DNA from: a virus
Taxonomy: Duplodnaviria > Caudoviricetes
IMG/VR virus record: IMGVR_UViG_3300003860_000008
Location: 1-47,539 of that record
Strand: one strand, 5' to 3'
DNA: 47,539 bases
The translations under genes were made by a program, and so were the position numbers. Shown in pieces: positions 7,406 through 47,539 of this stretch; within the stretch, counting starts at the first letter, position 1, and the number at the start of each line of letters is the position of its first letter. Below the pieces are notes generated by a model. It had not been told where the DNA came from. It made no database searches and saw only the letters and a list, made by a program, of their open reading frames with translations.

Positions 7406-7929
7406 AAGTATTTGTTTATAACATTATTATTTTTCTCGAAGTCACATCGAACTTGATATGCTTCAATTTCTGCATTAAAATGACCAAGATTTATAGTATT
7501 AGTATTAATTGTTATGCGAGATTTCCATTTTTTTCTCAACTTACACCAAGTAACCCCAATGTATTTAGAACTTGTTTTAGTTTTATCTTGTTTATGACAA
7601 TTATTTTCTATACTGGTGACCCATTCAAGATTTAAATGAAAATTATTTAAAGGATTTCCATCTTTATGGTTTACGAATGGTAAATTGAAAGGATTTGGAA
7701 TGTATTGAGCAACTAATCTATGTACAGCAAGTGTTTTAGTAGTATCATTGTTATTTAATTTTACACTATAGTATAATATATAATCACGTCCATTTTTACT
7801 TAGTTTTAATATTTTTTCCTTATTACATTTAAAACTCTTTACTCTTCCATAACTACTTATGTCATAATCAGGAAAATTTTTAACTGGTTTCCATATCTCC
7901 AGAAATGGACCATAAACTAATTCTTTCAT
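7402..7929 (-). CDS. NUMOD4-HNH-AP2 homing endonuclease, copy 1
   Basis: EIWKPV...YDISSYGRVKS (NUMOD4); VHRLVA...VNHKDGNPLNN...NLEW (HNH); SKYIGVTW...KW...LGHF..EIEAY (AP2). ATG at 7929. Confidence 0.92.
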   Translation of the reverse strand: MKELVYGPFLEIWKPVKNFPDYDISSYGRVKSFKCNKEKILKLSKNGRDYILYYSVKLNNNDTTKTLAVHRLVAQYIPNPFNLPFVNHKDGNPLNNFHLNLEWVTSIENNCHKQDKTKTSSKYIGVTWCKLRKKWKSRITINTNTINLGHFNAEIEAYQVRCDFEKNNNVINKYL

Positions 7930-8018
7930 AAACAAAAAATCCTATCGGTTTTCGAGGTTGCAGCTCTACTCACCAATAGGAATTATTTAAATTTCGTAAA
8001 TGTGACTGCAACTTCACA
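7930..8018 (-). ncRNA. Structured kissing-loop leader RNA, copy 1
   Basis: Hairpin TGTGA-AGTTGCAG-TCACA and hairpin CCTATTGGT...GAG-CTGCAAC-CTC...ACCGATAGG with complementary loops, then a U-tract; covaries with copies 2 and 3. Confidence 0.8.
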
Positions 8019-8021
8019 ATA

Positions 8022-8029
8022 CAAATATA
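8022..8029 (-). promoter_or_regulatory. Bacteroidota sigma-A -7 element
   Basis: TATATTTG (TAnnTTTG) directly upstream of leader copy 1. Confidence 0.75.
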
Positions 8030-8040
8030 AGAAAAAATTA

Positions 8041-8619
8041 TTAAAAATCTTCAGATGGTTTTAATATAGCGTTACCATTCAACTTAATAGAAGTTAAAGT
8101 TTCTTCTTGTTCAATCATTATTGACCAAACTTCTTGATCTTCAATAGATTTTCCAATCATTTTTTCCCAAGAAGTTTTCAAAGGTTTTGCTTTAGCAAAA
8201 ATCAATGGAATTGTACTGGGTTTAAAATCAAAGAAGAAGTTTTTCAATATTAAATCTTTACCTTTTTCGGAAACTTGTGAATATCTACCTTTTTTAATTA
8301 ATTGATAATCTACCATATTTTCTTCTGGTATTTCAAAAATCATTACCAATGTGCCATTAGAAATATATTCATCAGCGTAATTTGGATGATTATGTAATTC
8401 TTTATAAAAATTATCATAATCTTTATCAATATAACTAGAAATTACAATTGATACATGTTCGTTATACATTGGTTTTTGTTCATTGTAAATATAAGCATTT
8501 ACAAATCTGGTAGATTCAGTAACCTTACCAAAATTGGTAAGGTTAACTTTAAATAATTCTCTAGGAATATTCAATAGAGGAAAAATAAAAGTAGATGTTT
8601 TAGTAAATGTTACTTTCAT
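8041..8619 (-). CDS. Hypothetical replication-module protein
   Basis: ORF; likely start MKVTFTK at 8619 overlapping the upstream stop. Confidence 0.75.
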   Translation of the reverse strand: MKVTFTKTSTFIFPLLNIPRELFKVNLTNFGKVTESTRFVNAYIYNEQKPMYNEHVSIVISSYIDKDYDNFYKELHNHPNYADEYISNGTLVMIFEIPEENMVDYQLIKKGRYSQVSEKGKDLILKNFFFDFKPSTIPLIFAKAKPLKTSWEKMIGKSIEDQEVWSIMIEQEETLTSIKLNGNAILKPSEDF

Positions 8620-9638
8620 ATTTCTAATTTCATTTCCCCACATTCATAATATTCTGCACAATGATCCCAAGAATCATTATCATTATGATATTTAAATCTT
8701 TTAATAGCAGAAACAATACCTTCTAATTTTTTACCACTTGATAAAGTACCACCTAATGCTCCTAATTTCAATATTTCATGAGTTGTTGTATAAACCATTG
8801 GTGAATTTTTACATTCTTTTTCTATCACAAGAAATTTAAAATAGTCAACAGTATATCCTTCTGATATTAATTTTTTAATTACAGGATATTCTCTGATTCC
8901 TTTATCGTAAAAAGCAGCTTGAAAGTCATAACGATATTTGAAAAAACTTGTAGAAAATTCAGAAATATGACCAGACATAGTTTTAATATCAACTGGGTAT
9001 ATTTTCTTTTTCGAATGATTTATTGTAACAATATCCAATTCCCCTTTGAAATCTACACCTTGAAAAGTAAACTCAATGATAGGTTTTTTAATGATTTCTA
9101 CATCTTTTGTTTTAACAAGATATTGTTTTGTATAAGGATCTGATTTAAGAGCAGCACAAGCAATTAAAGCTTTACTATATTCTTCTTCAGATATTATTAA
9201 TTTATTAGCAGATTCTTGAAGTATTTTAAAATAATCAGAACCAGCTTCTATAATTTTCTGAAATCTAGTTTCTTCTTTATATGTCGGTTGATAGTTAAAT
9301 CTAGCAGCTGCTTCTAAAACAGCACCTTTATGATCTCCTAATTCTCCAGAATCTCTATATTCATTAAATACAATACTAACTATATCAATTATTGTATCTG
9401 AAGGCATTTTTATATTTTTCATAATGTAAAAAGTATCTTCAAATTCACTATCTTCAGTTAACATAAAATCAACTATTTTACCAAAAAGAAAATGAGGTTT
9501 TATTTTTTCAATAATTCCATTTTCTTTATCAATTAATTGTTGTTTAAATCTTTTCTCTGTTTCGATAAAAGATTGAGGATGTTTCAAAATTTGTTTTAAC
9601 AAAGATTGATTTAATTTTTCTAATTTATGATATTCCAT
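8616..9638 (-). CDS. PD-(D/E)XK exonuclease (RecE/DUF3799-like)
   Basis: KGELD...VDIKT...YRYDFQAAFY...FLVIEK. Confidence 0.85.
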   Translation of the reverse strand: MEYHKLEKLNQSLLKQILKHPQSFIETEKRFKQQLIDKENGIIEKIKPHFLFGKIVDFMLTEDSEFEDTFYIMKNIKMPSDTIIDIVSIVFNEYRDSGELGDHKGAVLEAAARFNYQPTYKEETRFQKIIEAGSDYFKILQESANKLIISEEEYSKALIACAALKSDPYTKQYLVKTKDVEIIKKPIIEFTFQGVDFKGELDIVTINHSKKKIYPVDIKTMSGHISEFSTSFFKYRYDFQAAFYDKGIREYPVIKKLISEGYTVDYFKFLVIEKECKNSPMVYTTTHEILKLGALGGTLSSGKKLEGIVSAIKRFKYHNDNDSWDHCAEYYECGEMKLEI

Positions 9639-9640
9639 AT

Positions 9641-10168
9641 TTATAGATATTTATTTATTATATTATTATTCTTTTCATAATTACAACGAGCTTGATAAGC
9701 TTCTAACTCAGTGTTAAATCTTCCTAAGTTTTTTAATATGGTATTTATTCTAATAATTGATTTCCAATTATTAGTTGATTTATCCCAAGAAACACCAGTA
9801 TATTGAGAACTGGTTTTACGATTATAGGAACTATGACACTGATTTTCTCGATTATCAACCCATTCAAGATTGAGATTGTGATTATTTAACTTGTTACCAT
9901 CTTTATGATTAATTTGTGGTAAATTAAAAGGATTAGGGATATATTGACCTACTAAACGATGTATTTTATAGTGTTTACATATATTATTAACTGATAATGA
10001 TATACCAAAATATTGCTCACCTTTATATCCTGATAACCCAGGTTTTAGTATTTTTTCTTTACCAAATTTAAAACTTTTCACTCTACCATAACTACTAATA
10101 TCGTAATCATCCCAACCTTTAACTGGTTTCCATATTTCTAGAAATGGACCATATTGTATTTCTTCCAT
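9641..10168 (-). CDS. NUMOD4-HNH-AP2 homing endonuclease, copy 2
   Basis: Close paralog of copy 1 (YGPFLEIWKPVK, YDISSYGRVKSFK, QYIPNPFNLP, INKYL). ATG at 10168. Confidence 0.92.
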   Translation of the reverse strand: MEEIQYGPFLEIWKPVKGWDDYDISSYGRVKSFKFGKEKILKPGLSGYKGEQYFGISLSVNNICKHYKIHRLVGQYIPNPFNLPQINHKDGNKLNNHNLNLEWVDNRENQCHSSYNRKTSSQYTGVSWDKSTNNWKSIIRINTILKNLGRFNTELEAYQARCNYEKNNNIINKYL

Positions 10169-10258
10169 AAACAAAAAATGCTACCAGCGTTCGAGGTTGA
10201 GGACTCTACTAACTGATAGCAATTATTATAATTTCGTAAATGTGACCTCAACTTCACA
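10169..10258 (-). ncRNA. Structured kissing-loop leader RNA, copy 2
   Basis: TGTGA-AGTTGAGG-TCACA and GCTATCAGT...GAG-TCCTCAAC-CTC...GCTGGTAGC; compensatory changes relative to copy 1. Confidence 0.8.
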
Positions 10259-10261
10259 ATA

Positions 10262-10269
10262 CAAAGATA
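10262..10269 (-). promoter_or_regulatory. Bacteroidota sigma-A -7 element
   Basis: TATCTTTG upstream of leader copy 2. Confidence 0.75.
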
Positions 10270-10280
10270 TGAAAATAAAA

Positions 10281-10811
10281 TTATAATTTTATTAATTTAG
10301 AGAAGAATTTACTAAATCTACCTTGTTGCTGTATTATTTTATATACTAATTTTCGATCATCTAAATGATCAACTTCTACAAACTCATAACTTCCACCAAC
10401 AATATGTTTTACATTATCATCAGGTAAAATACCAGCATGTACTATAGCATCTGTTAAACATTTATCCCACAGCATTGATAAATTCCCAATATCCCAATTA
10501 GGTTCGTAATCATCAGTTGGTTTTTTCCAAGAGATTTCTCTTATTCTAAGTTCTTTATTCATTTTAGATTTTACATTTCCAAAGTTTATCGGAGCGTGTA
10601 TCTCTAAATGAATCTTAACTGGTCCAGATATTTTTAAATCTGGAGGGATGTGTTGTTCAGCAAAACTATGCATTACAGATATAAATCTATTTCTCATAGT
10701 ATAATGAGGACTAGCATATATTGTATTGAATGATATTTTTTGCCATTTTAATCTACTTGTTGCAACGTGAGTTGGGAAAAGTGGAAATTCTATTATTATT
10801 TCGTTATTCAT
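10281..10811 (-). CDS. rusA: RusA-like Holliday junction resolvase
   Basis: WDIGNL...KCLTDAIVHAGILPDDNV matches the RusA DxxN...K...D...DD pattern. Confidence 0.7.
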   Translation of the reverse strand: MNNEIIIEFPLFPTHVATSRLKWQKISFNTIYASPHYTMRNRFISVMHSFAEQHIPPDLKISGPVKIHLEIHAPINFGNVKSKMNKELRIREISWKKPTDDYEPNWDIGNLSMLWDKCLTDAIVHAGILPDDNVKHIVGGSYEFVEVDHLDDRKLVYKIIQQQGRFSKFFSKLIKL

Positions 10812-13316: not shown

Positions 13317-14326
13317 AATATTTTGTTTAATTGTTCATTGAAAATACTACCTGCAGTTTCAACACCACCGTACTTAACAAGATCACTATAATCAGTAACA
13401 TTTGGAAGTTGAGGTATAAAGAAGTGAGGAATATCATATTTTTCTGAAAATACTTTAGACAGTTCTATACCTGCTTTATCATTATCAAATAAACAAACAA
13501 CTTTATCAAATCTTGTTTTATACTCATCCATTACAGATTCCTTCATAGTTACTGACTCTGATTGTAAACCAATAGAAAATATACCTTGAGTGTCGTACAT
13601 ACTCATTACATCTTTTAAAGATTTGGTGATTATTAATAATTCACCTGTTGGTGGTAACTGTGTATATCCTTGATGAACTGTGTAGTTTGCATTATTAATC
13701 CATTTAAACTTTTTATTTGGACTTTCTGGTTGATAAATTTTATACGATAATTGAGCATCTTTCCATTCTTCATAAGCATAAGCTAGTGGTTCAGCTTTTA
13801 CAGCATTTCCATTATAGAATATAAATTTAATTGGTGATACACGAAAACGTTCTAATGTTGATTTTCTAATGGCAAACTGTGACCAAAAATCTTGATCGTG
13901 CTTAAACCATTCTCTTTTATTAATACCAATATTTACAGATTTCTTTTCTTTTAATTTTTCAAAATGTTCAACATGATGTTTTACAGCATCAATATCAAAA
14001 TTAGAAAGTTTAAAATCGTATGCTATTTTAAATAAAGCATTCTCATAAGTTGTTTGAAATAATCTCATCACGAAAACGATACAATCTCCGCAATCTTTAG
14101 TTGCAAAATCGTAGTAAAGAAGTGTATATCTTTCAGTTTTATGATAATATAATGAGAAAGATGGTATTGTATCATCTCGAAACGGTGAGTTCATTAATGA
14201 TAAATTGGATATGTTTTCTCCTATATAAAAAGAATAAATATCTTCTTGACTTACTAATTTCAAAAGACCATCTTTTGTTATCCTCTCATCAAATAATATT
14301 GAATTTAAATTTATTTCATTATTCAT
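13313..14326 (-). CDS. dnaG: DNA primase (TOPRIM)
   Basis: N-terminal SPFRDD..PSF...DFAT...GD; ITKSLKDVM; LFDNDKAG. Confidence 0.85.
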   Translation of the reverse strand: MNNEINLNSILFDERITKDGLLKLVSQEDIYSFYIGENISNLSLMNSPFRDDTIPSFSLYYHKTERYTLLYYDFATKDCGDCIVFVMRLFQTTYENALFKIAYDFKLSNFDIDAVKHHVEHFEKLKEKKSVNIGINKREWFKHDQDFWSQFAIRKSTLERFRVSPIKFIFYNGNAVKAEPLAYAYEEWKDAQLSYKIYQPESPNKKFKWINNANYTVHQGYTQLPPTGELLIITKSLKDVMSMYDTQGIFSIGLQSESVTMKESVMDEYKTRFDKVVCLFDNDKAGIELSKVFSEKYDIPHFFIPQLPNVTDYSDLVKYGGVETAGSIFNEQLNKIL

Positions 14327-20600: not shown

Positions 20601-20776
20601 TTTTCTTTGATTATTCTATATTGATAATTTCCTGAGATTATAATTTCATTTGGTGTAAAACCATTAGTGAAAAACACTAATTCAAAATCTTCTCTTGGTT
20701 TAATAAATTTAAAAAATCTTAAAAACTTTTTCCATATTGGAGTTTTAAGTTCTGATGTAACAATATATCTTGTCAT
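20597..20776 (-). CDS. Small hypothetical protein (59 aa, not in ORF track)
   Basis: MTRYIVTSELKTPIWKK...; 4-nt overlaps with both neighbours. Confidence 0.55.
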   Translation of the reverse strand: MTRYIVTSELKTPIWKKFLRFFKFIKPREDFELVFFTNGFTPNEIIISGNYQYRIIKEK

Positions 20777-21345
20777 AAATAAGTTATTTTTAAAGGGTTA
20801 AAATTTTGTATTGCATTATATTTATTAATTATTCCATTTTCTCTTTCAAAATCACATCTTGCATTATAAGCTTCTTCTTCAGTATTAAATCTTCCTAAAT
20901 TAATTGCTATTTTATTAAATTTTATAGCAGCAATCCATTTATTATTTATTTTATCCCAACTAACACCAATATAATTTGATGTCTTATTTGTTTTTATTTT
21001 ATTATGACAAACATTTTCTCGTTGAGAAACCCATTCAAGATTCAGATAATGATTATTTAATTGATTACCATCAATGTGATTTACAACCATTGAATCATCA
21101 TTATTAAATACAAAATGTAAAGCAACTATTCGATGCACTTTTTGAGTTTTCTTACTTTGATATTTACGTAGAGCAAATGTTAAATAACCTCTTTCATTAG
21201 GGCATGGGTTTAATATTCTTTCTTTAATAGTTATTGAATTAGTTCCTCTTGGTACAACTCTATATAAACTTTTAATTCTTCCTAAATTACTAACTTGATA
21301 TAATCCTTCATAATTAGTAATATCCATCCATATTTCTTTTTCCAT
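20773..21345 (-). CDS. NUMOD4-HNH-AP2 homing endonuclease, copy 3
   Basis: EIWMDITNYEGLYQVSNLGRIKS; VHRIVA...VNHIDGN...NLEW; SNYIGVSW. Likely start ATG at 21345. Confidence 0.92.
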   Translation of the reverse strand: MEKEIWMDITNYEGLYQVSNLGRIKSLYRVVPRGTNSITIKERILNPCPNERGYLTFALRKYQSKKTQKVHRIVALHFVFNNDDSMVVNHIDGNQLNNHYLNLEWVSQRENVCHNKIKTNKTSNYIGVSWDKINNKWIAAIKFNKIAINLGRFNTEEEAYNARCDFERENGIINKYNAIQNFNPLKITYL

Positions 21346-21433
21346 AAATAAAAAAGCCCCATTAATCCGAGGTCGAAGGCTCTTCATAATGAGGTCTTAA
21401 ATAATGTTTTTAAATGCAGCTTCGACTCTACAC
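21346..21433 (-). ncRNA. Structured kissing-loop leader RNA, copy 3
   Basis: GTGTAG-AGTCGAAG-CTGCAT and CCTCATTA...GAG-CCTTCGAC-CTC...TAATGGGG, then a U-tract. Confidence 0.78.
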
Positions 21434-21435
21434 TA

Positions 21436-21443
21436 CAAAGATA
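21436..21443 (-). promoter_or_regulatory. Bacteroidota sigma-A -7 element
   Basis: TATCTTTG upstream of leader copy 3. Confidence 0.75.
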
Positions 21444-25571: not shown

Positions 25572-25600
25572 AAAGTTTATTTTGATTGTTTATATTAATT

Positions 25601-25693
25601 TGTGGACATGACAGGATTCGAACCTGTAAACGCTCCTCCCATTTAAGGGCTGCCTTCTTATAAGGAGTATATTTTCCAACCGATCACACACCC
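25601..25693 (-). tRNA. Degenerate tRNA-like element (possibly Leu-TAA-derived)
   Basis: Perfect T arm ACAGG-TTCGAAT-CCTGT; acceptor GGGTGTG/CATGTCC with wobbles; irregular D and anticodon arms. Confidence 0.45.
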
Positions 25694-25808
25694 GACCATT
25701 TTCAAAGTATTCCACCAATAGACATCAAAACTACCAGTCCCAATTAATAAATGCATCGACTCATTCATACTTTGAAAATTGTGGATTCGAACCACTTTAC
25801 TTCTTTAA

Positions 25809-33745: not shown

Positions 33746-33940
33746 GCTACTTTCAAGTTGTTCGTATATTAACTTTATTAGTTGCTCTTGATCTAGTACG
33801 TGTTGAAAGTTATAACCATTATAGCCAGAGCTTAATTCAACGTGTTCAATTTCAAATCCTTGTTCAAAATTATCTTCTTGATGTAATTTAACTATACAAT
33901 CAAATTCTATTGAATAGAAATTTATCATTACTGTTTTCAT
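33740..33940 (-). CDS. Hypothetical protein
   Basis: ORF whose stop codon lies within the GTTA core site. Confidence 0.6.
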   Translation of the reverse strand: MKTVMINFYSIEFDCIVKLHQEDNFEQGFEIEHVELSSGYNGYNFQHVLDQEQLIKLIYEQLESSL

Positions 33941-34104
33941 TTTTTTAATTCTTTAATTAATTCTTGTAATTTTACTATTTTCTCCCAATCTTCAACAGAA
34001 TACATGACAGAACTCTTCCAAGTATATTTATCAATGATTTTATGCAATTGGTGATTATAATATATTCTTAATATTATATTTCTAATGGTTCTTAGTATTT
34101 TCAT
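33937..34104 (-). CDS. Small hypothetical protein (55 aa, not in ORF track)
   Basis: MKILRTIRN...; ATGA overlap with the next gene. Confidence 0.45.
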   Translation of the reverse strand: MKILRTIRNIILRIYYNHQLHKIIDKYTWKSSVMYSVEDWEKIVKLQELIKELKK

Positions 34105-34161
34105 TATTATTGAATTATTGTGAGTTAATAGAATATCTATAGATGATGAGTAATTTTAAAT

Positions 34162-34194
34162 AAGAGGAAGGCATTTCATAGCTACCTTCCTCTT
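34162..34194 (-). terminator. Strong hairpin / terminator downstream of tRNA-like element
   Basis: AAGAGGAAGG / CCTTCCTCTT 10-bp stem. Confidence 0.6.
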
Positions 34195-34224
34195 GTTGTG
34201 TATTTACTGTTGATTTTAAATACA

Positions 34225-34298
34225 TTGTTGTCAAGGTGGACTCGAACCACCATCTCAAGATTAGTCTCTTGTGCTTTACCAATTAAGCTATTTGACAT
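34225..34298 (-). tRNA. tRNA-like gene with aberrant 6-nt anticodon loop (GACTAA)
   Basis: D arm TAGCTTAATTGGTAAAGC, anticodon stem CAAGA/TCTTG, T arm GGTGG-TTCGAGT-CCACC, acceptor TGTCAA/TTGACA. Confidence 0.65.
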
Positions 34299-34299
34299 C

Positions 34300-34995
34300 C
34301 TTACCTAACTGTTCAATTATACACAAAGAGAACCGTTTCCGCATTCTCCTTTACCTAGATCTAGCACCTACAGCATACACGCTATGGTCGTAACCAACGG
34401 ACTAGCCTGTCATGTGTATCTGTTTAGGTCACTGTGATATAGAGAATTTTAGACCATGAATATTTCTATCCTATTAATATCCCTAGTATTAATATCCCAC
34501 CTCAAAGCTATAAGGTTATCCTATTTTATCACATTGCTTGAGGCTCATTAGCACACAGATACGACTCACGCATATTTGTTTCACGTACTCTTTCTCAAGG
34601 AGGTGTACTTCCAGTATTTCTACTAGTATTTTGCACAAATAACTCCACCACATATAAATATACTTGTCTGTTTGTTATTTTATTTGTACCAGCATCAATG
34701 TTTAGCTGTTTTCTTTAAAACTCTCACGTCTTCCAATAGAATACGTTCTCTATAGCTAGCTACCAACCTAATGTGTGCCCGTATTTAACGCACTAAATAT
34801 GCGTACTATATACACTTAATACCTGACTCACAATAACTCCTATATTGGACCAGGATTATAACAACACTTACAGTTTAACCCAGTGTCCAGCTATTTCCCG
34901 TAAGACATATATTGATACCAACGTTAGTGAAGATCATCAAATACAGTGACACTTTGATTTATTGATGTTATTTATTGCTAATCAGCGTGAGGGTA
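34300..34995 (-). ncRNA. Candidate large structured non-coding RNA(s)
   Basis: About 700 nt without ORF, GC-enriched, with multiple long-range helices whose wobbles fit the minus strand. Confidence 0.5.
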
Positions 34996-34998
34996 ATG

Positions 34999-35304
34999 TT
35001 ATTTAGTAGTGACTAATTTCCCTAAAATGATTTCTTCATCTTCTTCACTAATTTTCAATGTTCTAATTACCCATTGAGAAGTAGAATCAAACTCATCAGA
35101 TAATTGACCAGTTGAACTATTGAAGTATTTGAAAGATTTATCCAATACTTTTACAATTTGTAAATTAGTAGAATATTCTTCTGTTTCAATTAAATCTCCT
35201 TCTTTCAAATCATCTGCAGTATTGAAAGAATATCTTTTCAATTTTCCTAATTCTTTCGATGACGTAATTTTAGTATTTGTGTAAACACATAATATTGTTT
35301 TCAT
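34999..35304 (-). CDS. Hypothetical protein
   Basis: ORF. Confidence 0.7.
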   Translation of the reverse strand: MKTILCVYTNTKITSSKELGKLKRYSFNTADDLKEGDLIETEEYSTNLQIVKVLDKSFKYFNSSTGQLSDEFDSTSQWVIRTLKISEEDEEIILGKLVTTK

Positions 35305-38791: not shown

Positions 38792-39301
38792 TTATGCTTG
38801 TGCTACGTTCACAGCTGGTGTGTGACGAACTGTTTCTGTAAATACAAAGTGTTTAGGCTCACCCAACACGATTGTTGCTCTACGGTAAATAAATGCACCT
38901 TCAGCAGTAAGAATGAATGCACCGTCTTTACCAGCTCTTTTAGCTGACTTATCCATGTTTGCAATTTCATACTCTGTACCATCTGTTGATTCAATGATTT
39001 GGATATTCATATCCTTATCTTGGATTTGCCCTACAACAACATCCAATTCCATTGAATCACCTAATTCAACAAGACCACTGAAATCAATGTTGAATAATGC
39101 AGTTGCATCTTGTGGTTCTGCTGATAACCAACAATGAGTTAATTTACCTGATTGTGTAAAACGTTCATCACTTGCATTCAATAATGATAATAAGTTTACT
39201 TGACGTTCTTCACCTGTTACTACAACTTGTGTGAACTCTAACTCGATTTTTGTTCCGTTGATTTTACGAGCTGATACTAATGTTAAATCTTTTCTTTCCA
39301 T
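38792..39301 (-). CDS. Hypothetical protein, first gene of the minus-strand (early) block
   Basis: 169-aa ORF with A-rich leader. Confidence 0.8.
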   Translation of the reverse strand: MERKDLTLVSARKINGTKIELEFTQVVVTGEERQVNLLSLLNASDERFTQSGKLTHCWLSAEPQDATALFNIDFSGLVELGDSMELDVVVGQIQDKDMNIQIIESTDGTEYEIANMDKSAKRAGKDGAFILTAEGAFIYRRATIVLGEPKHFVFTETVRHTPAVNVAQA

Positions 39302-39939
39302 GATACTTGTTTTTTAATTGTTTAAATAATTGATTGTTTACTTCTTGTTTACAGAGTTGTTAAGAATGCTAATACATACTGTTGTATGACTGCGTTGTTG
39401 GTAAACTCTATGACTAGTACGAAGCTTTGTGTAATAGTCAATGTTTTTTACTTACCTAGGTAAATACATTATTTGCTATGATATGTTGATTGAAAGTCTA
39501 ATGTGGTAATTACATGAATACTTGATTGATTGATAAATGATCTGCGTAGCATATACACTCTAGCTTTCACGCTATAATAACATAGAAATCTATACAGCCG
39601 ACTCACCGCTCACCACTGTATAGATTCTAATGATAACAAGTGTTACCGTAGAACGACTACGAGTCATTCCCCAGATAACATTCCTTGTTGTTTGAACATT
39701 GGTTATACCTAGTTCGAGGTAGTATGTGTTCATCACATACAAGGTCCATTGCTTACTGCCAATGACAACATCCTATGTTAATCCAAAACTTCAGACTCAG
39801 AATAATTCTGAAATCGTTAGCATGAATACTTAACATAGGGGGAATAGCTTTACTCCCAAAATTTAGTAGGGGTCGGACTATTAGGTGGTCACTACTTAAG
39901 TTTGATCAGAAATAATATCCCCTATTAAAATATTATACT

Positions 39940-39947
39940 TATATTTG
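39940..39947 (+). promoter_or_regulatory. Bacteroidota sigma-A -7 element
   Basis: TATATTTG 24 nt upstream of the GIY-YIG ATG. Confidence 0.7.
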
Positions 39948-39971
39948 TAAAATAAATTAAAAATAAAAATT

Positions 39972-40898
39972 ATGAAAACAGGAATTTACATGATCTTAAA
40001 TACTAAAAATAATAAAGTATATGTTGGTAGTAGTGTCGATATATCAGAAAGATGGAAAAGACATAAATCAGGATTAAACAATAATAAACATTACAATACT
40101 TATTTACAATCTTCATGGAATAAATATCAATCTGAATCTTTTCAATTTTCAATACTTGAATTATGTTCTGAAGAACTATTAACAGAAAGAGAAAATCATT
40201 GGTGTACAATATTTGATTCTCATAATAAATCTAAAGGTTACAACTTAGCATCTATTATGAGAAATGGTCCTTCATCTGAAGAACATAAAAAACTACTATC
40301 TTCTAAAACTACAAATAAGAAAAGAGTATGGTTAACAGATCGACAAGGAAATATTTTAAATGTATTTGAAAGTAATCAGCAAGCAGCAGATATTTTAAAT
40401 ACTACTGTTTCACATATTCAATTCTTAACAACTGGTAAAGTAAAGAAGTTCGATAATCAATTCTTACTATGGGACACAAATAGATTCTTTCAAAAAGATA
40501 TTCAATTACGAAATCAAAAACGAATTGGGTCACCTAGTCAAAAACAAATATTTCAATTCTCAATAGATGGTCAACTTCTAAATTCATTTCCATCTATCAA
40601 AGAAGCGATTTCTCAATCTCAAATATTAAACTTGAAATATCTTATTGATTCTGGTATAAACAACATAGGGGGATCTCTATGGAGCTATATGAATACTGTT
40701 CCTTCAACCATTGTTTCAAAAAATATAAAATATGTATATCAATACTCTTTAGATAAAATACTATTAAATACTTTCGAATCAATTGTTGAAGCTTCTATCA
40801 AAACTAATTCTAAAACTAAAGGAATACAGAAAGTATTATCTGGAGAACGTAATCATCATAATAGTTTTATCTGGAGTAGAGATATTCTTTCAGTATAG
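39972..40898 (+). CDS. GIY-YIG homing endonuclease with NUMOD1-like repeats
   Basis: GIYMILN...VYVGSS..I..RW..H; GYN; repeated QYSLD..LLNTFESI.EA units. Confidence 0.92.
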   Translation: MKTGIYMILNTKNNKVYVGSSVDISERWKRHKSGLNNNKHYNTYLQSSWNKYQSESFQFSILELCSEELLTERENHWCTIFDSHNKSKGYNLASIMRNGPSSEEHKKLLSSKTTNKKRVWLTDRQGNILNVFESNQQAADILNTTVSHIQFLTTGKVKKFDNQFLLWDTNRFFQKDIQLRNQKRIGSPSQKQIFQFSIDGQLLNSFPSIKEAISQSQILNLKYLIDSGINNIGGSLWSYMNTVPSTIVSKNIKYVYQYSLDKILLNTFESIVEASIKTNSKTKGIQKVLSGERNHHNSFIWSRDILSV

Positions 40899-45760: not shown

Positions 45761-47539
45761 ATGATAGAAAACTCAAACTTCAGACTTAAAGAGATTCCTA
45801 ATTTCCATCCAGAATTAGAATATTATGATCGTAAAGAATTTTGGGGTGGTGAGAAAAGAAAATGTATTGAAGGATATTGGGTTGGTGGTAAATGGATGCC
45901 TGGACCTCTTTATTATTATATTAACTTTCATAATATTCTATTTGAGGACGATTCTTCAGTTTCTCAAGCAGTAGGACTTCCTTTCCTTAGAGATATTGAT
46001 TGGGAGTTATTTTTGTATTATGAAGAATGTAGAGGTTTCTCAGGATTTGAATTTGATACAGATACTACGTGTGATAGAAAATATGGTCCTGAATTAGAAG
46101 TATCATTAAAACTAAAAAGAATTACTCAATCAGAAGCAGATTCTAAAACATATATTAATGCTCGTGACTACCTTAGAAAACATCATGGTAAGAATTTAGG
46201 TAAACCTTTGTATAAAAATTCAGCTAAACATTTCTTCTCGATCCAGAGTCGAGGCGGTGGGAAAGCAACACCTTGGTTTACGAAAATCTATACTCCTGAT
46301 GGATTTAAATTAATGCGTGATGTAGAAGTTGGAGATCAAGTAATTGGTTCAACTGGATCACCTATTACAGTTTTGCAGAAACATCCTCAAGGTGAACAAC
46401 CTGTATGGGAAGTAGAATTTCAAGATGGTAGAAAATCTTATTGTCATGAAGGACATTTATGGGAGGTAACTAAACGTGGAAGAAAAAATAAAAAAGAAAT
46501 TTTATCAACTTTGGAACTTTTCAATAAAGGTGTATGTACAGATTTAGGATATAGAGTAGTTTATAATTATTATATACCGAAGTCCCCAGTAACACAACAT
46601 ACTGAAAAAATTCAAACAATTCCTCCTTATGTATTAGGTGCTTTATTAGGAGATGGTACAATGACAACATTAACTCCAAAAATAGCAAGTAGTGATATTG
46701 AAACAATTGAAAGATTTAGAATATTGCTGCCTGATCATGAATTAGTACATGATAAATCTACAACAAATAATTATACAATTGTTTATAGAGGTCAAAGAGG
46801 AACTTTTAATAATAGATTTGGAGCACCCTCGCTTCCAGATAAATCAAACCCATTAACAACAGCAATTAGAAATCTAAAATTAAATGTGACATGTGAATAT
46901 AAATTTATACCTGACGAATATAAATATGGTTCTGTAGAACAACGTTTGGAAATTGTAAAAGGATTAATGGACTCAGATGGGTGTTGTACATTAGGTGGGC
47001 AATGTGAATTTACAAATTCATCATTACAATTAGTAAAAGATTTAAGAGAAATTTTAAATTCTTTAGGAATTAGATGTCATATTGGTAAAGCTGATGATAG
47101 AGTTGGTAGAGTACATGAATATCAAGGACATCTAATTCATTGTAATAAAATTTGTCATAGATTACATATAAATCCTTCAGATACGATAATTTTCCATTTA
47201 ACAAGAAAAATTAAAAGACAAGGTGTAAAATCAGTTTTTGATAAAGTTGCAATAAAAAATATTAAAAAACTAGATTCTAATCAAGAGCAATTCTGTATAA
47301 CAGTTGATTCAAATGATCATTTATATTTAACTGAAGATTATATTGTAACGCATAATTCTTATGGTACTAGCGGTATTTGCGATCATAACTTTCTATTTGA
47401 TGGAGCTACTGATTATGATGTTTATTTAGAACGAAAAAAAATAAAAAAATATTTAGCATCTGATACTATTGTAGGAGCAATTGATACAAAGTATTCAGCA
47501 CCTTTGATGAAAAAGTGTACAACTGCTTTTGATTATTAT
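45761..47539 (+). CDS. terL: Terminase large subunit, intein-containing, 3'-truncated (missing from ORF track)
   Basis: MIENSNF...FW..EKRKCIEG...MPGPLYYYINF...PFLRDIDW; Walker A SRGGGK/S split by intein; frame runs off the window end. Confidence 0.88.
   Translation, partial: MIENSNFRLKEIPNFHPELEYYDRKEFWGGEKRKCIEGYWVGGKWMPGPLYYYINFHNILFEDDSSVSQAVGLPFLRDIDWELFLYYEECRGFSGFEFDTDTTCDRKYGPELEVSLKLKRITQSEADSKTYINARDYLRKHHGKNLGKPLYKNSAKHFFSIQSRGGGKATPWFTKIYTPDGFKLMRDVEVGDQVIGSTGSPITVLQKHPQGEQPVWEVEFQDGRKSYCHEGHLWEVTKRGRKNKKEILSTLELFNKGVCTDLGYRVVYNYYIPKSPVTQHTEKIQTIPPYVLGALLGDGTMTTLTPKIASSDIETIERFRILLPDHELVHDKSTTNNYTIVYRGQRGTFNNRFGAPSLPDKSNPLTTAIRNLKLNVTCEYKFIPDEYKYGSVEQRLEIVKGLMDSDGCCTLGGQCEFTNSSLQLVKDLREILNSLGIRCHIGKADDRVGRVHEYQGHLIHCNKICHRLHINPSDTIIFHLTRKIKRQGVKSVFDKVAIKNIKKLDSNQEQFCITVDSNDHLYLTEDYIVTHNSYGTSGICDHNFLFDGATDYDVYLERKKIKKYLASDTIVGAIDTKYSAPLMKKCTTAFDYY
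46265..47356 (+). mobile_element. Intein (364 aa) with LAGLIDADG endonuclease, Ala1 / class 3-type
   Basis: Begins ATPWFTKIYTPDG; block B CHEGHLW; PYVLGALLGDG and GLMDSDG; ends QFCITVDSNDHLYLTEDYIVTHN/S. Confidence 0.92.

Follow-up and report, generated by a model that had tools for sequence, protein, structure and literature searches.

The window, that is, the whole stretch of DNA analysed here (47,539 nt), comprises an entire 47.5-kb virus record that CheckV rates as 35% complete. It encodes a DNA polymerase, DnaB, a primase, two helicases, Thy1, UDG, a ligase, a DUF4494 protein and an intein-bearing terminase, a gene set for which we take 'crAss-like' to be the appropriate label. Among the cultured matches listed for its exonuclease, Flavobacterium psychrophilum phages rank best (28% identity), with Bacteroides phages equally numerous among all matches, so that the protein comparison assigns the virus to the phages of Bacteroidota. 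The gene of the terminase large subunit (45761-47539, plus strand) carries a LAGLIDADG intein and extends past the window end. On the minus strand, a tRNA gene at 34226-34299 has a short and abnormal anticodon loop, is called 'tRNA-???' by ARAGORN and scores 48.6 bits with the Rfam tRNA model; it is possibly a decayed tRNA. An intergenic minus-strand region at ~25590-25770 contains two motifs resembling T-arms and a 3' end like that of a tRNA, which are called by neither ARAGORN nor Rfam and represent candidate degenerate tRNA-like elements. Two long minus-strand stretches without ORFs of at least 60 aa (33940-35000 and 39300-39970), where the tRNA is the sole Rfam match, are candidates for other non-coding RNAs.

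Three minus-strand ORFs, which are the NUMOD4 genes of the window, are each preceded by a leader of the same construction (Table 1). In all three copies, a TAnnTTTG box is followed by a hairpin with an 8-nt loop (P1), a 20-nt A/U linker, a second hairpin (P2), which contains a purine internal loop and ends in a loop closed by GAG/CTC, a T6 tract and, a few bases further on, the ATG. These elements had been described in a first-pass annotation, and all of them were found again in the sequence, in the same positions, strand and order. The same holds for its observation that the two loops are exact 7-nt complements with another pair, or code, in each copy, and for the loop-E-like AGUA/GAA internal loop of copies 1 and 2. 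The UGAA/GGAU loop of copy 3 occurs again in other family members. Copies 1 and 2 agree at 84 of 101 positions of the leader and encode proteins that are 63% identical, but two positions of the code differ between them, in either loop. The calculated folding energies of P2 are -16.2, -16.1 and -12.8 kcal/mol for copies 1, 2 and 3, respectively; P1 folds with about -4 kcal/mol and the loop duplexes with -8.3 to -8.9 kcal/mol in the three window copies. A covariance model, whose training set included the three window elements, gives exactly three matches in the window (E 3e-16, 3e-16 and 2e-11; next E 0.1). The gene of copy 3 has a further in-frame ATG upstream at 21387, inside P2. We take TAnnTTTG to be the Bacteroidota -7 promoter consensus, and by this resemblance the box would act as a promoter. 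A GIY-YIG-NUMOD1 endonuclease gene elsewhere in the window (39972-40898, plus strand) has its own TAnnTTTG box at 39940 and no kissing leader.

Table 1. Positions of the three leaders, their parts and the genes that follow them in the window.
Feature	Position	Strand	Basis
Copy 1 promoter-like box TAnnTTTG, TATATTTG	8022-8029	-	Bacteroidota -7 consensus
Copy 1 hairpin P1, 5 bp, 8-nt loop A+GTTGCAG	8001-8018 (8014-8018/8001-8005)	-	
Copy 1 loop-1 code GTTGCAG	8006-8012	-	
Copy 1 single-stranded A/U-rich linker, 20 nt	7981-8000	-	
Copy 1 hairpin P2 and T6, predicted intrinsic terminator	7934-7980	-	Fold energy, covariation
Copy 1 P2a stem	7972-7980/7941-7949	-	
Copy 1 loop-E-type internal loop AGTA/GAA (RNA AGUA/GAA)	7967-7970/7951-7953	-	
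Copy 1 loop 2 CTGCAAC, above GAG/CUC stem	7957-7963	-	
Copy 1 T6 tract; ATG	7934-7939; 7929	-	
Copy 1 gene, NUMOD4-HNH-(AP2-like) endonuclease, 175 aa	7402-7929	-	
Copy 2 promoter-like box TAnnTTTG	10262-10269	-	
Copy 2 hairpin P1, loop code GTTGAGG (10246-10252)	10241-10258	-	
Copy 2 hairpin P2 with AGUA/GAA loop, loop CCTCAAC (10196-10202), T6 tract	10173-10220	-	
Copy 2 gene, NUMOD4-HNH-(AP2-like) endonuclease, 175 aa; ATG 10168	9641-10168	-	
Copy 3 promoter-like box TAnnTTTG	21436-21443	-	
Copy 3 hairpin P1, loop code GTCGAAG (21420-21426)	21414-21433	-	
Copy 3 hairpin P2 with UGAA/GGAU purine internal loop, loop CTTCGAC (21372-21378), T6	21350-21394	-	
Copy 3 gene, NUMOD4-HNH_3-AP2 endonuclease, 190 aa; ATG 21345	20773-21345	-	

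Searches beyond the window revealed a large family of such leaders, and the kissing-loop fold is almost certainly real. A viral pattern restricted to the promoter tail and P2 core gave about 200 stretches; among the 120 examined, 77 have an upstream complement of loop 2 of at least 7 nt, which the pattern did not require. The same pattern in bacterial contigs of GTDB gave chance matches, with such a complement in 1 of 120 stretches (of ~370). Metagenome matches chosen on hairpin 2 alone (118, less 4 too close to a contig end) have the upstream complement in 95/114 cases, compared with 1 of 110 control stretches, and all 49 matches of a third pattern pair without mismatch or wobble over the free loop positions. 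The proposed covariation of the stems was borne out as well: in 27 hand-picked sequences, whose kinship was ignored, both sides change in 21 of 24 pairs, a level reached by 0/500 shuffles, and the paired fraction is 95% against 35-39% in slid controls, a comparison that is circular for the kiss itself. Together, the upstream complements and the covariation strongly support the first-pass proposal of an RNA fold under selection, in which a kissing loop is combined with a terminator-like end.

A detector based on architecture alone found 184 matches in 310 partly redundant loci (2.93 Mb) and none in 0.95 Mb of shuffled sequence, and uncovered subtypes in which the upper stem or the internal loop is of another kind, P1 is longer or loop 1 is rich in pyrimidines. 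A separate detector returned 248 elements, of which 158 are distinct, with 40 codes. The AGUAGAG/CUCGAA core, which the search patterns partly imposed, is present in 135/158 copies and the promoter box in 120/158, with a strict box 0-8 nt ahead of P1 in 109/158. Across the 158 members, the ATG lies a median of 8 nt beyond P2, and the linker measures 20 nt at the median and 15 nt at the minimum. Code position 2 is U in 152/153 members (partly imposed by two of the patterns) and position 4 is a purine in 146/153, a loop pattern that we take to be U-turn-like, while positions 3-6 are variable. Linkers are less paired than shuffled linkers, which led us to reject an extension of P1 by pairing between linker and promoter region in upstream read-through transcripts. 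Two further ideas, a hammerhead core and a conserved leader peptide, were discarded after inspection by eye.

In keeping with the earlier remark that the RNA could not be assigned to a named family, a search of the window against Rfam 15 (4227 models) matched the tRNA alone at the gathering cut-off; the region 7800-10400 gave no match near gathering at E<=10, and 10 other loci gave none at E<=1. BLASTN of three elements against 50,697 phage records returned short chance matches alone. Literature searches returned nothing that describes this motif, and the words 'kissing', 'HNH' and 'Flavobacter' are absent from the main text of Weinberg 2017. The family has probably been catalogued before, anonymously, as DNAVirus_8377, a 105-nt motif of 88 sequences with a predicted terminator, mostly from freshwater and with Bacteroidetes hosts, located upstream of HNH_3/NUMOD4/AP2/GIY-YIG genes (Fremin et al, 2023; PMC10690425). 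Judged by this table entry, length, terminator, habitat, host and downstream domains all fit; the main text of the same paper does not contain 'kissing', 'HNH' or 'NUMOD'.

By sequence similarity, the genes behind the window leaders are NUMOD4-HNH endonucleases related to I-HmuI. The HNH_3 domain scores 33.1 bits in copy 3 and 22 bits, under the cut-off, in copy 1, and is not listed for copy 2; PHROG HNH families match the proteins of copies 1 and 2, and the copy 3 protein matches I-HmuI (PDB 1U3E) with E 1.3e-15. Of the original label 'HNH-AP2', the AP2 domain is weak, being seen in copy 3 alone and under the cut-off. Across the family, a downstream ORF is in view for 152 distinct elements (6 had none) and was labelled through the representative of its single-linkage cluster. 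Endonuclease-like genes (NUMOD4-HNH, GIY-YIG, endonuclease VII-like and T5orf172) account for 78 of these and replication-initiator-like genes (DUF6291, Lin1244_N/DUF7833, HTH_36/DnaD) for 39, although 18 of the latter labels rest on PHROG or partial similarity; the remainder are 3 primases, 1 helicase, 1 AntA-KilAC antirepressor, 1 YopX and 29 others. Identical codes and the same leader precede initiators, primases, helicases, the antirepressor and unrelated nuclease folds (HNH, GIY-YIG, endonuclease VII-like), which speaks against the idea of a nuclease-dedicated module. Similarly, the claim that the leader precedes every HNH-AP2 gene applies to the three genes of the window and not in general. 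In carrier genomes, which were chosen for having one copy, 13/15 NUMOD4-HNH genes have the leader (one identified by eye), whereas it is found at 3/21 NUMOD4-HNH loci fetched by protein similarity (one by eye), the other 18 of these distant relatives lacking it. One NUMOD4-HNH gene has a leader of another kind (L128:1370-1500, plus strand), in which an 11-nt segment directly after the box is complementary to a segment in a terminator-like hairpin, the layout of a classic antiterminator.

At two of the three sites, the leader arrived together with its gene. In a collinear relative (L799), the RusA-like gene, the exonuclease gene, a 200-aa gene and UDG are consecutive, with neither HNH gene nor leader at sites 1 and 2, and at site 2 nothing separates the two flanking genes (RusA-like and exonuclease), which overlap each other. 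The comparison therefore shows that promoter box, leader and nuclease gene were inserted there as one cassette; for site 3, no counterpart was found. On the bacterial side, no kissing copy was present among 30 pattern loci from 401 Flavobacteriaceae-family genomes, the model found none in 151 Weeksellaceae-family genomes (a search of low sensitivity, with 28 candidates scored per genome), and 0/5 further bacterial genomes contained the leader. As far as these searches reach, the family is a phage feature.

The arrangement of the leader is best read as an attenuator, one of the roles envisaged for the RNA, of roughly 85 nt, in the first-pass annotation, here with a copy-specific code and with transcription and termination predicted from its parts. 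Since the box lies 0-8 nt before P1 and the ATG a median of 8 nt after P2, the transcript would start at P1, and the predicted ~90-nt leader RNA would meet the terminator-like P2 just before the gene. Closing of P2 followed by the U-tract would terminate transcription and release a short RNA; P2, whose base is only ~8 nt away from the start codon, would in addition impede the loading of ribosomes. Because replication genes lie downstream, read-through must occur. That the leader attenuates the downstream gene in cis is probable. For the element as a whole, we tentatively prefer a ligand-free attenuator in which the kiss in cis favours read-through and terminated copies compete in trans, a combination that falls somewhat short of an even chance. 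We infer termination from the U-tract, the polarity of the kiss from the guanidine-IV riboswitch and feedback in trans from the turnover of the codes.

Among the characterised RNAs that we came across, guanidine-IV RNA (the GGAM-1/mepA motif) alone has a kiss that engages the loop of the terminator itself; as published, it pairs, like the leader, the loop of hairpin 1 with that of an intrinsic-terminator hairpin within ~90-105 nt of 5' leader. The proposal in these accounts is that kissing puts the linker under tension and hinders closing of the terminator base, resulting in read-through (PMC7736828, PMC11611296). By analogy, the 7-bp kiss of hairpin 1 with the P2 loop of the same transcript may favour read-through, for which we consider the chances about equal either way. 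Unbulged kisses of 5-7 bp are described as generally stable without ligand (PMC10907184). In the leader, the linker is too short for stacked helices in 0/158 members, its contour being ~120 A compared with ~78 A for the stacked helix, and linker length does not scale with stem length (rho -0.09, p 0.25). In this geometric model, a kiss in cis is feasible, but the slack and the missing correlation with stem length speak against a hard steric block and weaken a strict strain model.

A small-molecule or ion riboswitch of the guanidine-IV type nevertheless seems very improbable, despite the identical topology and the recurrent core. Set against the published description of guanidine-IV, the leader lacks conserved bases in its loops (40 codes among 158 copies), forms a perfect, unbulged 7-bp kiss and precedes replication and nuclease genes of Bacteroidota phages rather than sugE/MATE-type transporters. 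Its loop bases vary freely, the internal loop and the upper stem are replaceable, and no metabolite is common to the downstream genes. The leader likely acts like a guanidine-IV-type attenuator without being one, with a purpose resembling that of the elements that damp T-even endonucleases.

In the attenuator reading, the terminated copies would accumulate and, sharing the same code, compete for the loops. If either loop of a terminated RNA paired with the nascent transcript, the tether in cis would be lost and termination favoured, giving negative feedback; terminated RNA could, however, pair internally and have no effect in trans. The outcome would be an early burst of the downstream gene, fading as the short RNA accumulates, separately for each code. 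In IsrK of Gifsy-1, as described, a terminated leader acts on its own read-through form (PMC4825925). Initiators, primases and helicases of phages may have the leader natively or by inheritance, and free-standing homing endonucleases would bring it along to limit their own expression.

Evidence for such an action between molecules comes from the codes, of which those in 99 loop-E-class elements (of 158) were usable for comparison. Between nearest relatives by flanking sequence (42 tree edges), double changes number 45 in the kiss and 15 in the stems, or 0.153 and 0.030 per pair, so that codes change about five times faster. The excess comes mostly from one lineage of initiator leaders (33 vs 7) and is weak elsewhere (12 vs 8, p 0.03, the edges not being independent), and over the whole tree the excess of kiss over stems vanishes (151 vs 243, p 0.29). 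The 23 copies of the initiator-leader lineage use three codes, any two of which differ at 3 positions, and no intermediates occur; the codes are reassorted over three downstream gene families and are common to genes just 4-10% apart at third codon positions. Rapid change and three distant codes without intermediates are what selection would produce if molecules acted on one another by code. The signal could also arise without selection, through recombination of old alleles, and we consider code-specific action in trans somewhat less likely than not.

The first-pass annotation had further suggested that the codes serve as a copy-specific lock-and-key that keeps paralogues independent. In the window, cognate duplexes reach -8.3 to -8.9 kcal/mol and non-cognate ones -0.1 to -5.9 kcal/mol. 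None of 14 same-genome pairs share a code, which agrees with the suggestion and lies within chance (0.42); one pair (G041) differs by a single base. Likewise, no code is repeated within any of the 20 loci with at least two copies, some of which are near-identical phages and many of which pair different subtypes. A self-titrating version, in which key and lock sit on one transcript, so that a self-kiss gives read-through and a kiss by earlier terminated copies gives shut-off, is rather doubtful. If it were true, the 7-nt code would define an incompatibility group among lytic Bacteroidota phages and time their replication initiators and homing endonucleases, and a resident phage would silence a late co-infecting relative of the same code, which would drive codes apart.

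The loop-1 code has no general counterpart near the gene. The code 7-mer was found in the 150 nt downstream in 0/158 members, with 11 6-mers against 5.1 expected, and repeats up- or downstream were not enriched at 7 nt and weakly at 6 nt. In a few members (L001, L090, L113 and L516:14540-14640), six bases of the code are repeated just before the start codon. There, the region of translation start would offer loop 2 an alternative pairing partner; family-wide enrichment is weak.

A competing reading is a throttle acting in cis only: the kiss would stabilise or nucleate the terminator and start-codon hairpin, expression would be fixed at a low level, and the codes would drift and recombine. The linker allows the kiss and the full terminator to coexist, P2 alone reaches -13 to -16 kcal/mol, and its top has just 3 bp above the internal loop, which the kiss would stabilise. 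A precedent is found in T-even phages, where, as published, hairpins damp endonuclease genes (PMC2988022) and mobE of T4 is damped by a leaky terminator with 30-50% termination (PMC2790892). Such a throttle leaves unexplained why codes change in double steps, faster than stems and without intermediates; damping by a simple terminator would require no second hairpin, and essential replication genes downstream require read-through. On balance, we regard it as unlikely, if a serious competitor. The T-even parallel itself extends to an RNA structure that limits a free-standing HNH or GIY-YIG gene within a replication operon, and the HNH genes of the window are likewise free-standing and inserted in such an operon. 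In the published accounts, however, this is a single hairpin that hides the Shine-Dalgarno sequence and is circumvented by a late promoter starting within it, or else an intragenic terminator, with neither kissing loop nor code (PMC2988022, PMC2790892), whereas the box of the leader is upstream of both hairpins, and no SD-like purine run precedes the ATG.

Less credible, and in our view improbable, is that the kissing complex presents a shape to a phage or host protein (Rop-like or an antiterminator) that switches read-through during infection regardless of code. The geometry is kept while the sequence varies, including swaps of AGUA/GAA for UGAA/GGAU and variants of GAG/CTC. Yet, apart from HNH, no protein family is widely common to nine carrier genomes at the BLAST level, and rapid change of the codes would have no reason.

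An immunity RNA of the P1 c4 / P4 CI type, as in temperate phages, was another analogy of the first-pass annotation, and it now appears quite unlikely. In its favour, the leader encodes an RNA complementary to an upstream site, precedes replication and antirepressor genes, as in the P4 layout (PMC4825925), and has allele-like codes. As far as the published descriptions go, IsrK and P4 CI share with the leader a short terminated RNA and a read-through mRNA from one promoter, the short form possibly acting on its own locus. IsrK, however, pairs with the region of a downstream ORF and activates translation, whereas the leader forms a loop-loop pair within itself, and CI needs sites on both sides and processing, whereas the leader has the upstream site alone; the downstream search described above revealed no second target. 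IsrK and CI also belong to temperate elements. Among 47 carriers, many of them fragments and 20 at least 90% complete, none has a tyrosine integrase (PF00589) above the cut-off and 1 has a weak match, in a search confined to tyrosine recombinases, and this argues against prophage immunity, as does the lack of a kissing copy in the Flavobacteriaceae-family loci.

That the RNA is an antitoxin, guide or cofactor of the HNH nuclease is rejected as scarcely tenable, since the leader is not nuclease-specific, however many endonuclease-like genes follow it and however regularly it accompanies NUMOD4-HNH genes in the carriers. Type III toxin-antitoxin systems consist of tandem pseudoknot repeats and a downstream endoribonuclease toxin, with a terminator between RNA and gene. 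Of this layout, which had also been invoked, the leader has the predicted terminator (hairpin and T6) alone; it is a single unit per gene without tandem array, and in the window an I-HmuI-like HNH DNase follows rather than an endoribonuclease. In pT181/pIP501 antisense attenuators and ColE1 RNA I, key and lock are the two strands of the same DNA. As in these plasmids, the loop sequence could set the specificity of control over a replication gene, but both loops of the leader are on one transcript and must change together. No plus-strand TAnnTTTG box, the one box type searched, from which a counter-transcript could start lies within 1 kb below any of the three copies.

The leaders thus constitute a widespread phage RNA family without an Rfam model and with no functional description found, located before initiators and homing endonucleases. 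Their topology has so far been known from one ligand-gated riboswitch and here carries an interchangeable 7-nt code. Should the trans step hold, the element would be a protein-free negative-feedback timer through which lytic phages interfere with one another by an RNA code, and the family would supply Bacteroidota genetics with orthogonal attenuators ready for use. The question is directly testable, as three cultured carriers were identified via neighbouring proteins. In Polaribacter phage P12002L (NC_028924.1, 34380-34466, minus strand), the leader precedes an HTH_36 primosomal protein and matches the model with E 2.5e-9. In Flavobacterium phage morran9-1 (NC_048836.1, ~14185-14290; found by the detector) and Cellulophaga phage phi19:1 (NC_021799.1, ~10360-10450; found by eye), the leader is followed by a small ORF and a gene resembling an initiator, and primase/helicase genes lie further downstream. 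In morran9-1, the annotated 47-aa gp42 overlaps the leader (L802:14157-14300) and is probably a false gene call. Finally, a conserved AGTTAT-NGG-T(A/T)ATCTTAA motif lies past the terminator and before a 70-78 aa ORF at several loci (L801:10460-10500, L802:14295-14335, L004, L016, L069 and L109). This ORF matches no Pfam family, and in phi19:1 and morran9-1 it abuts or overlaps the initiator gene.
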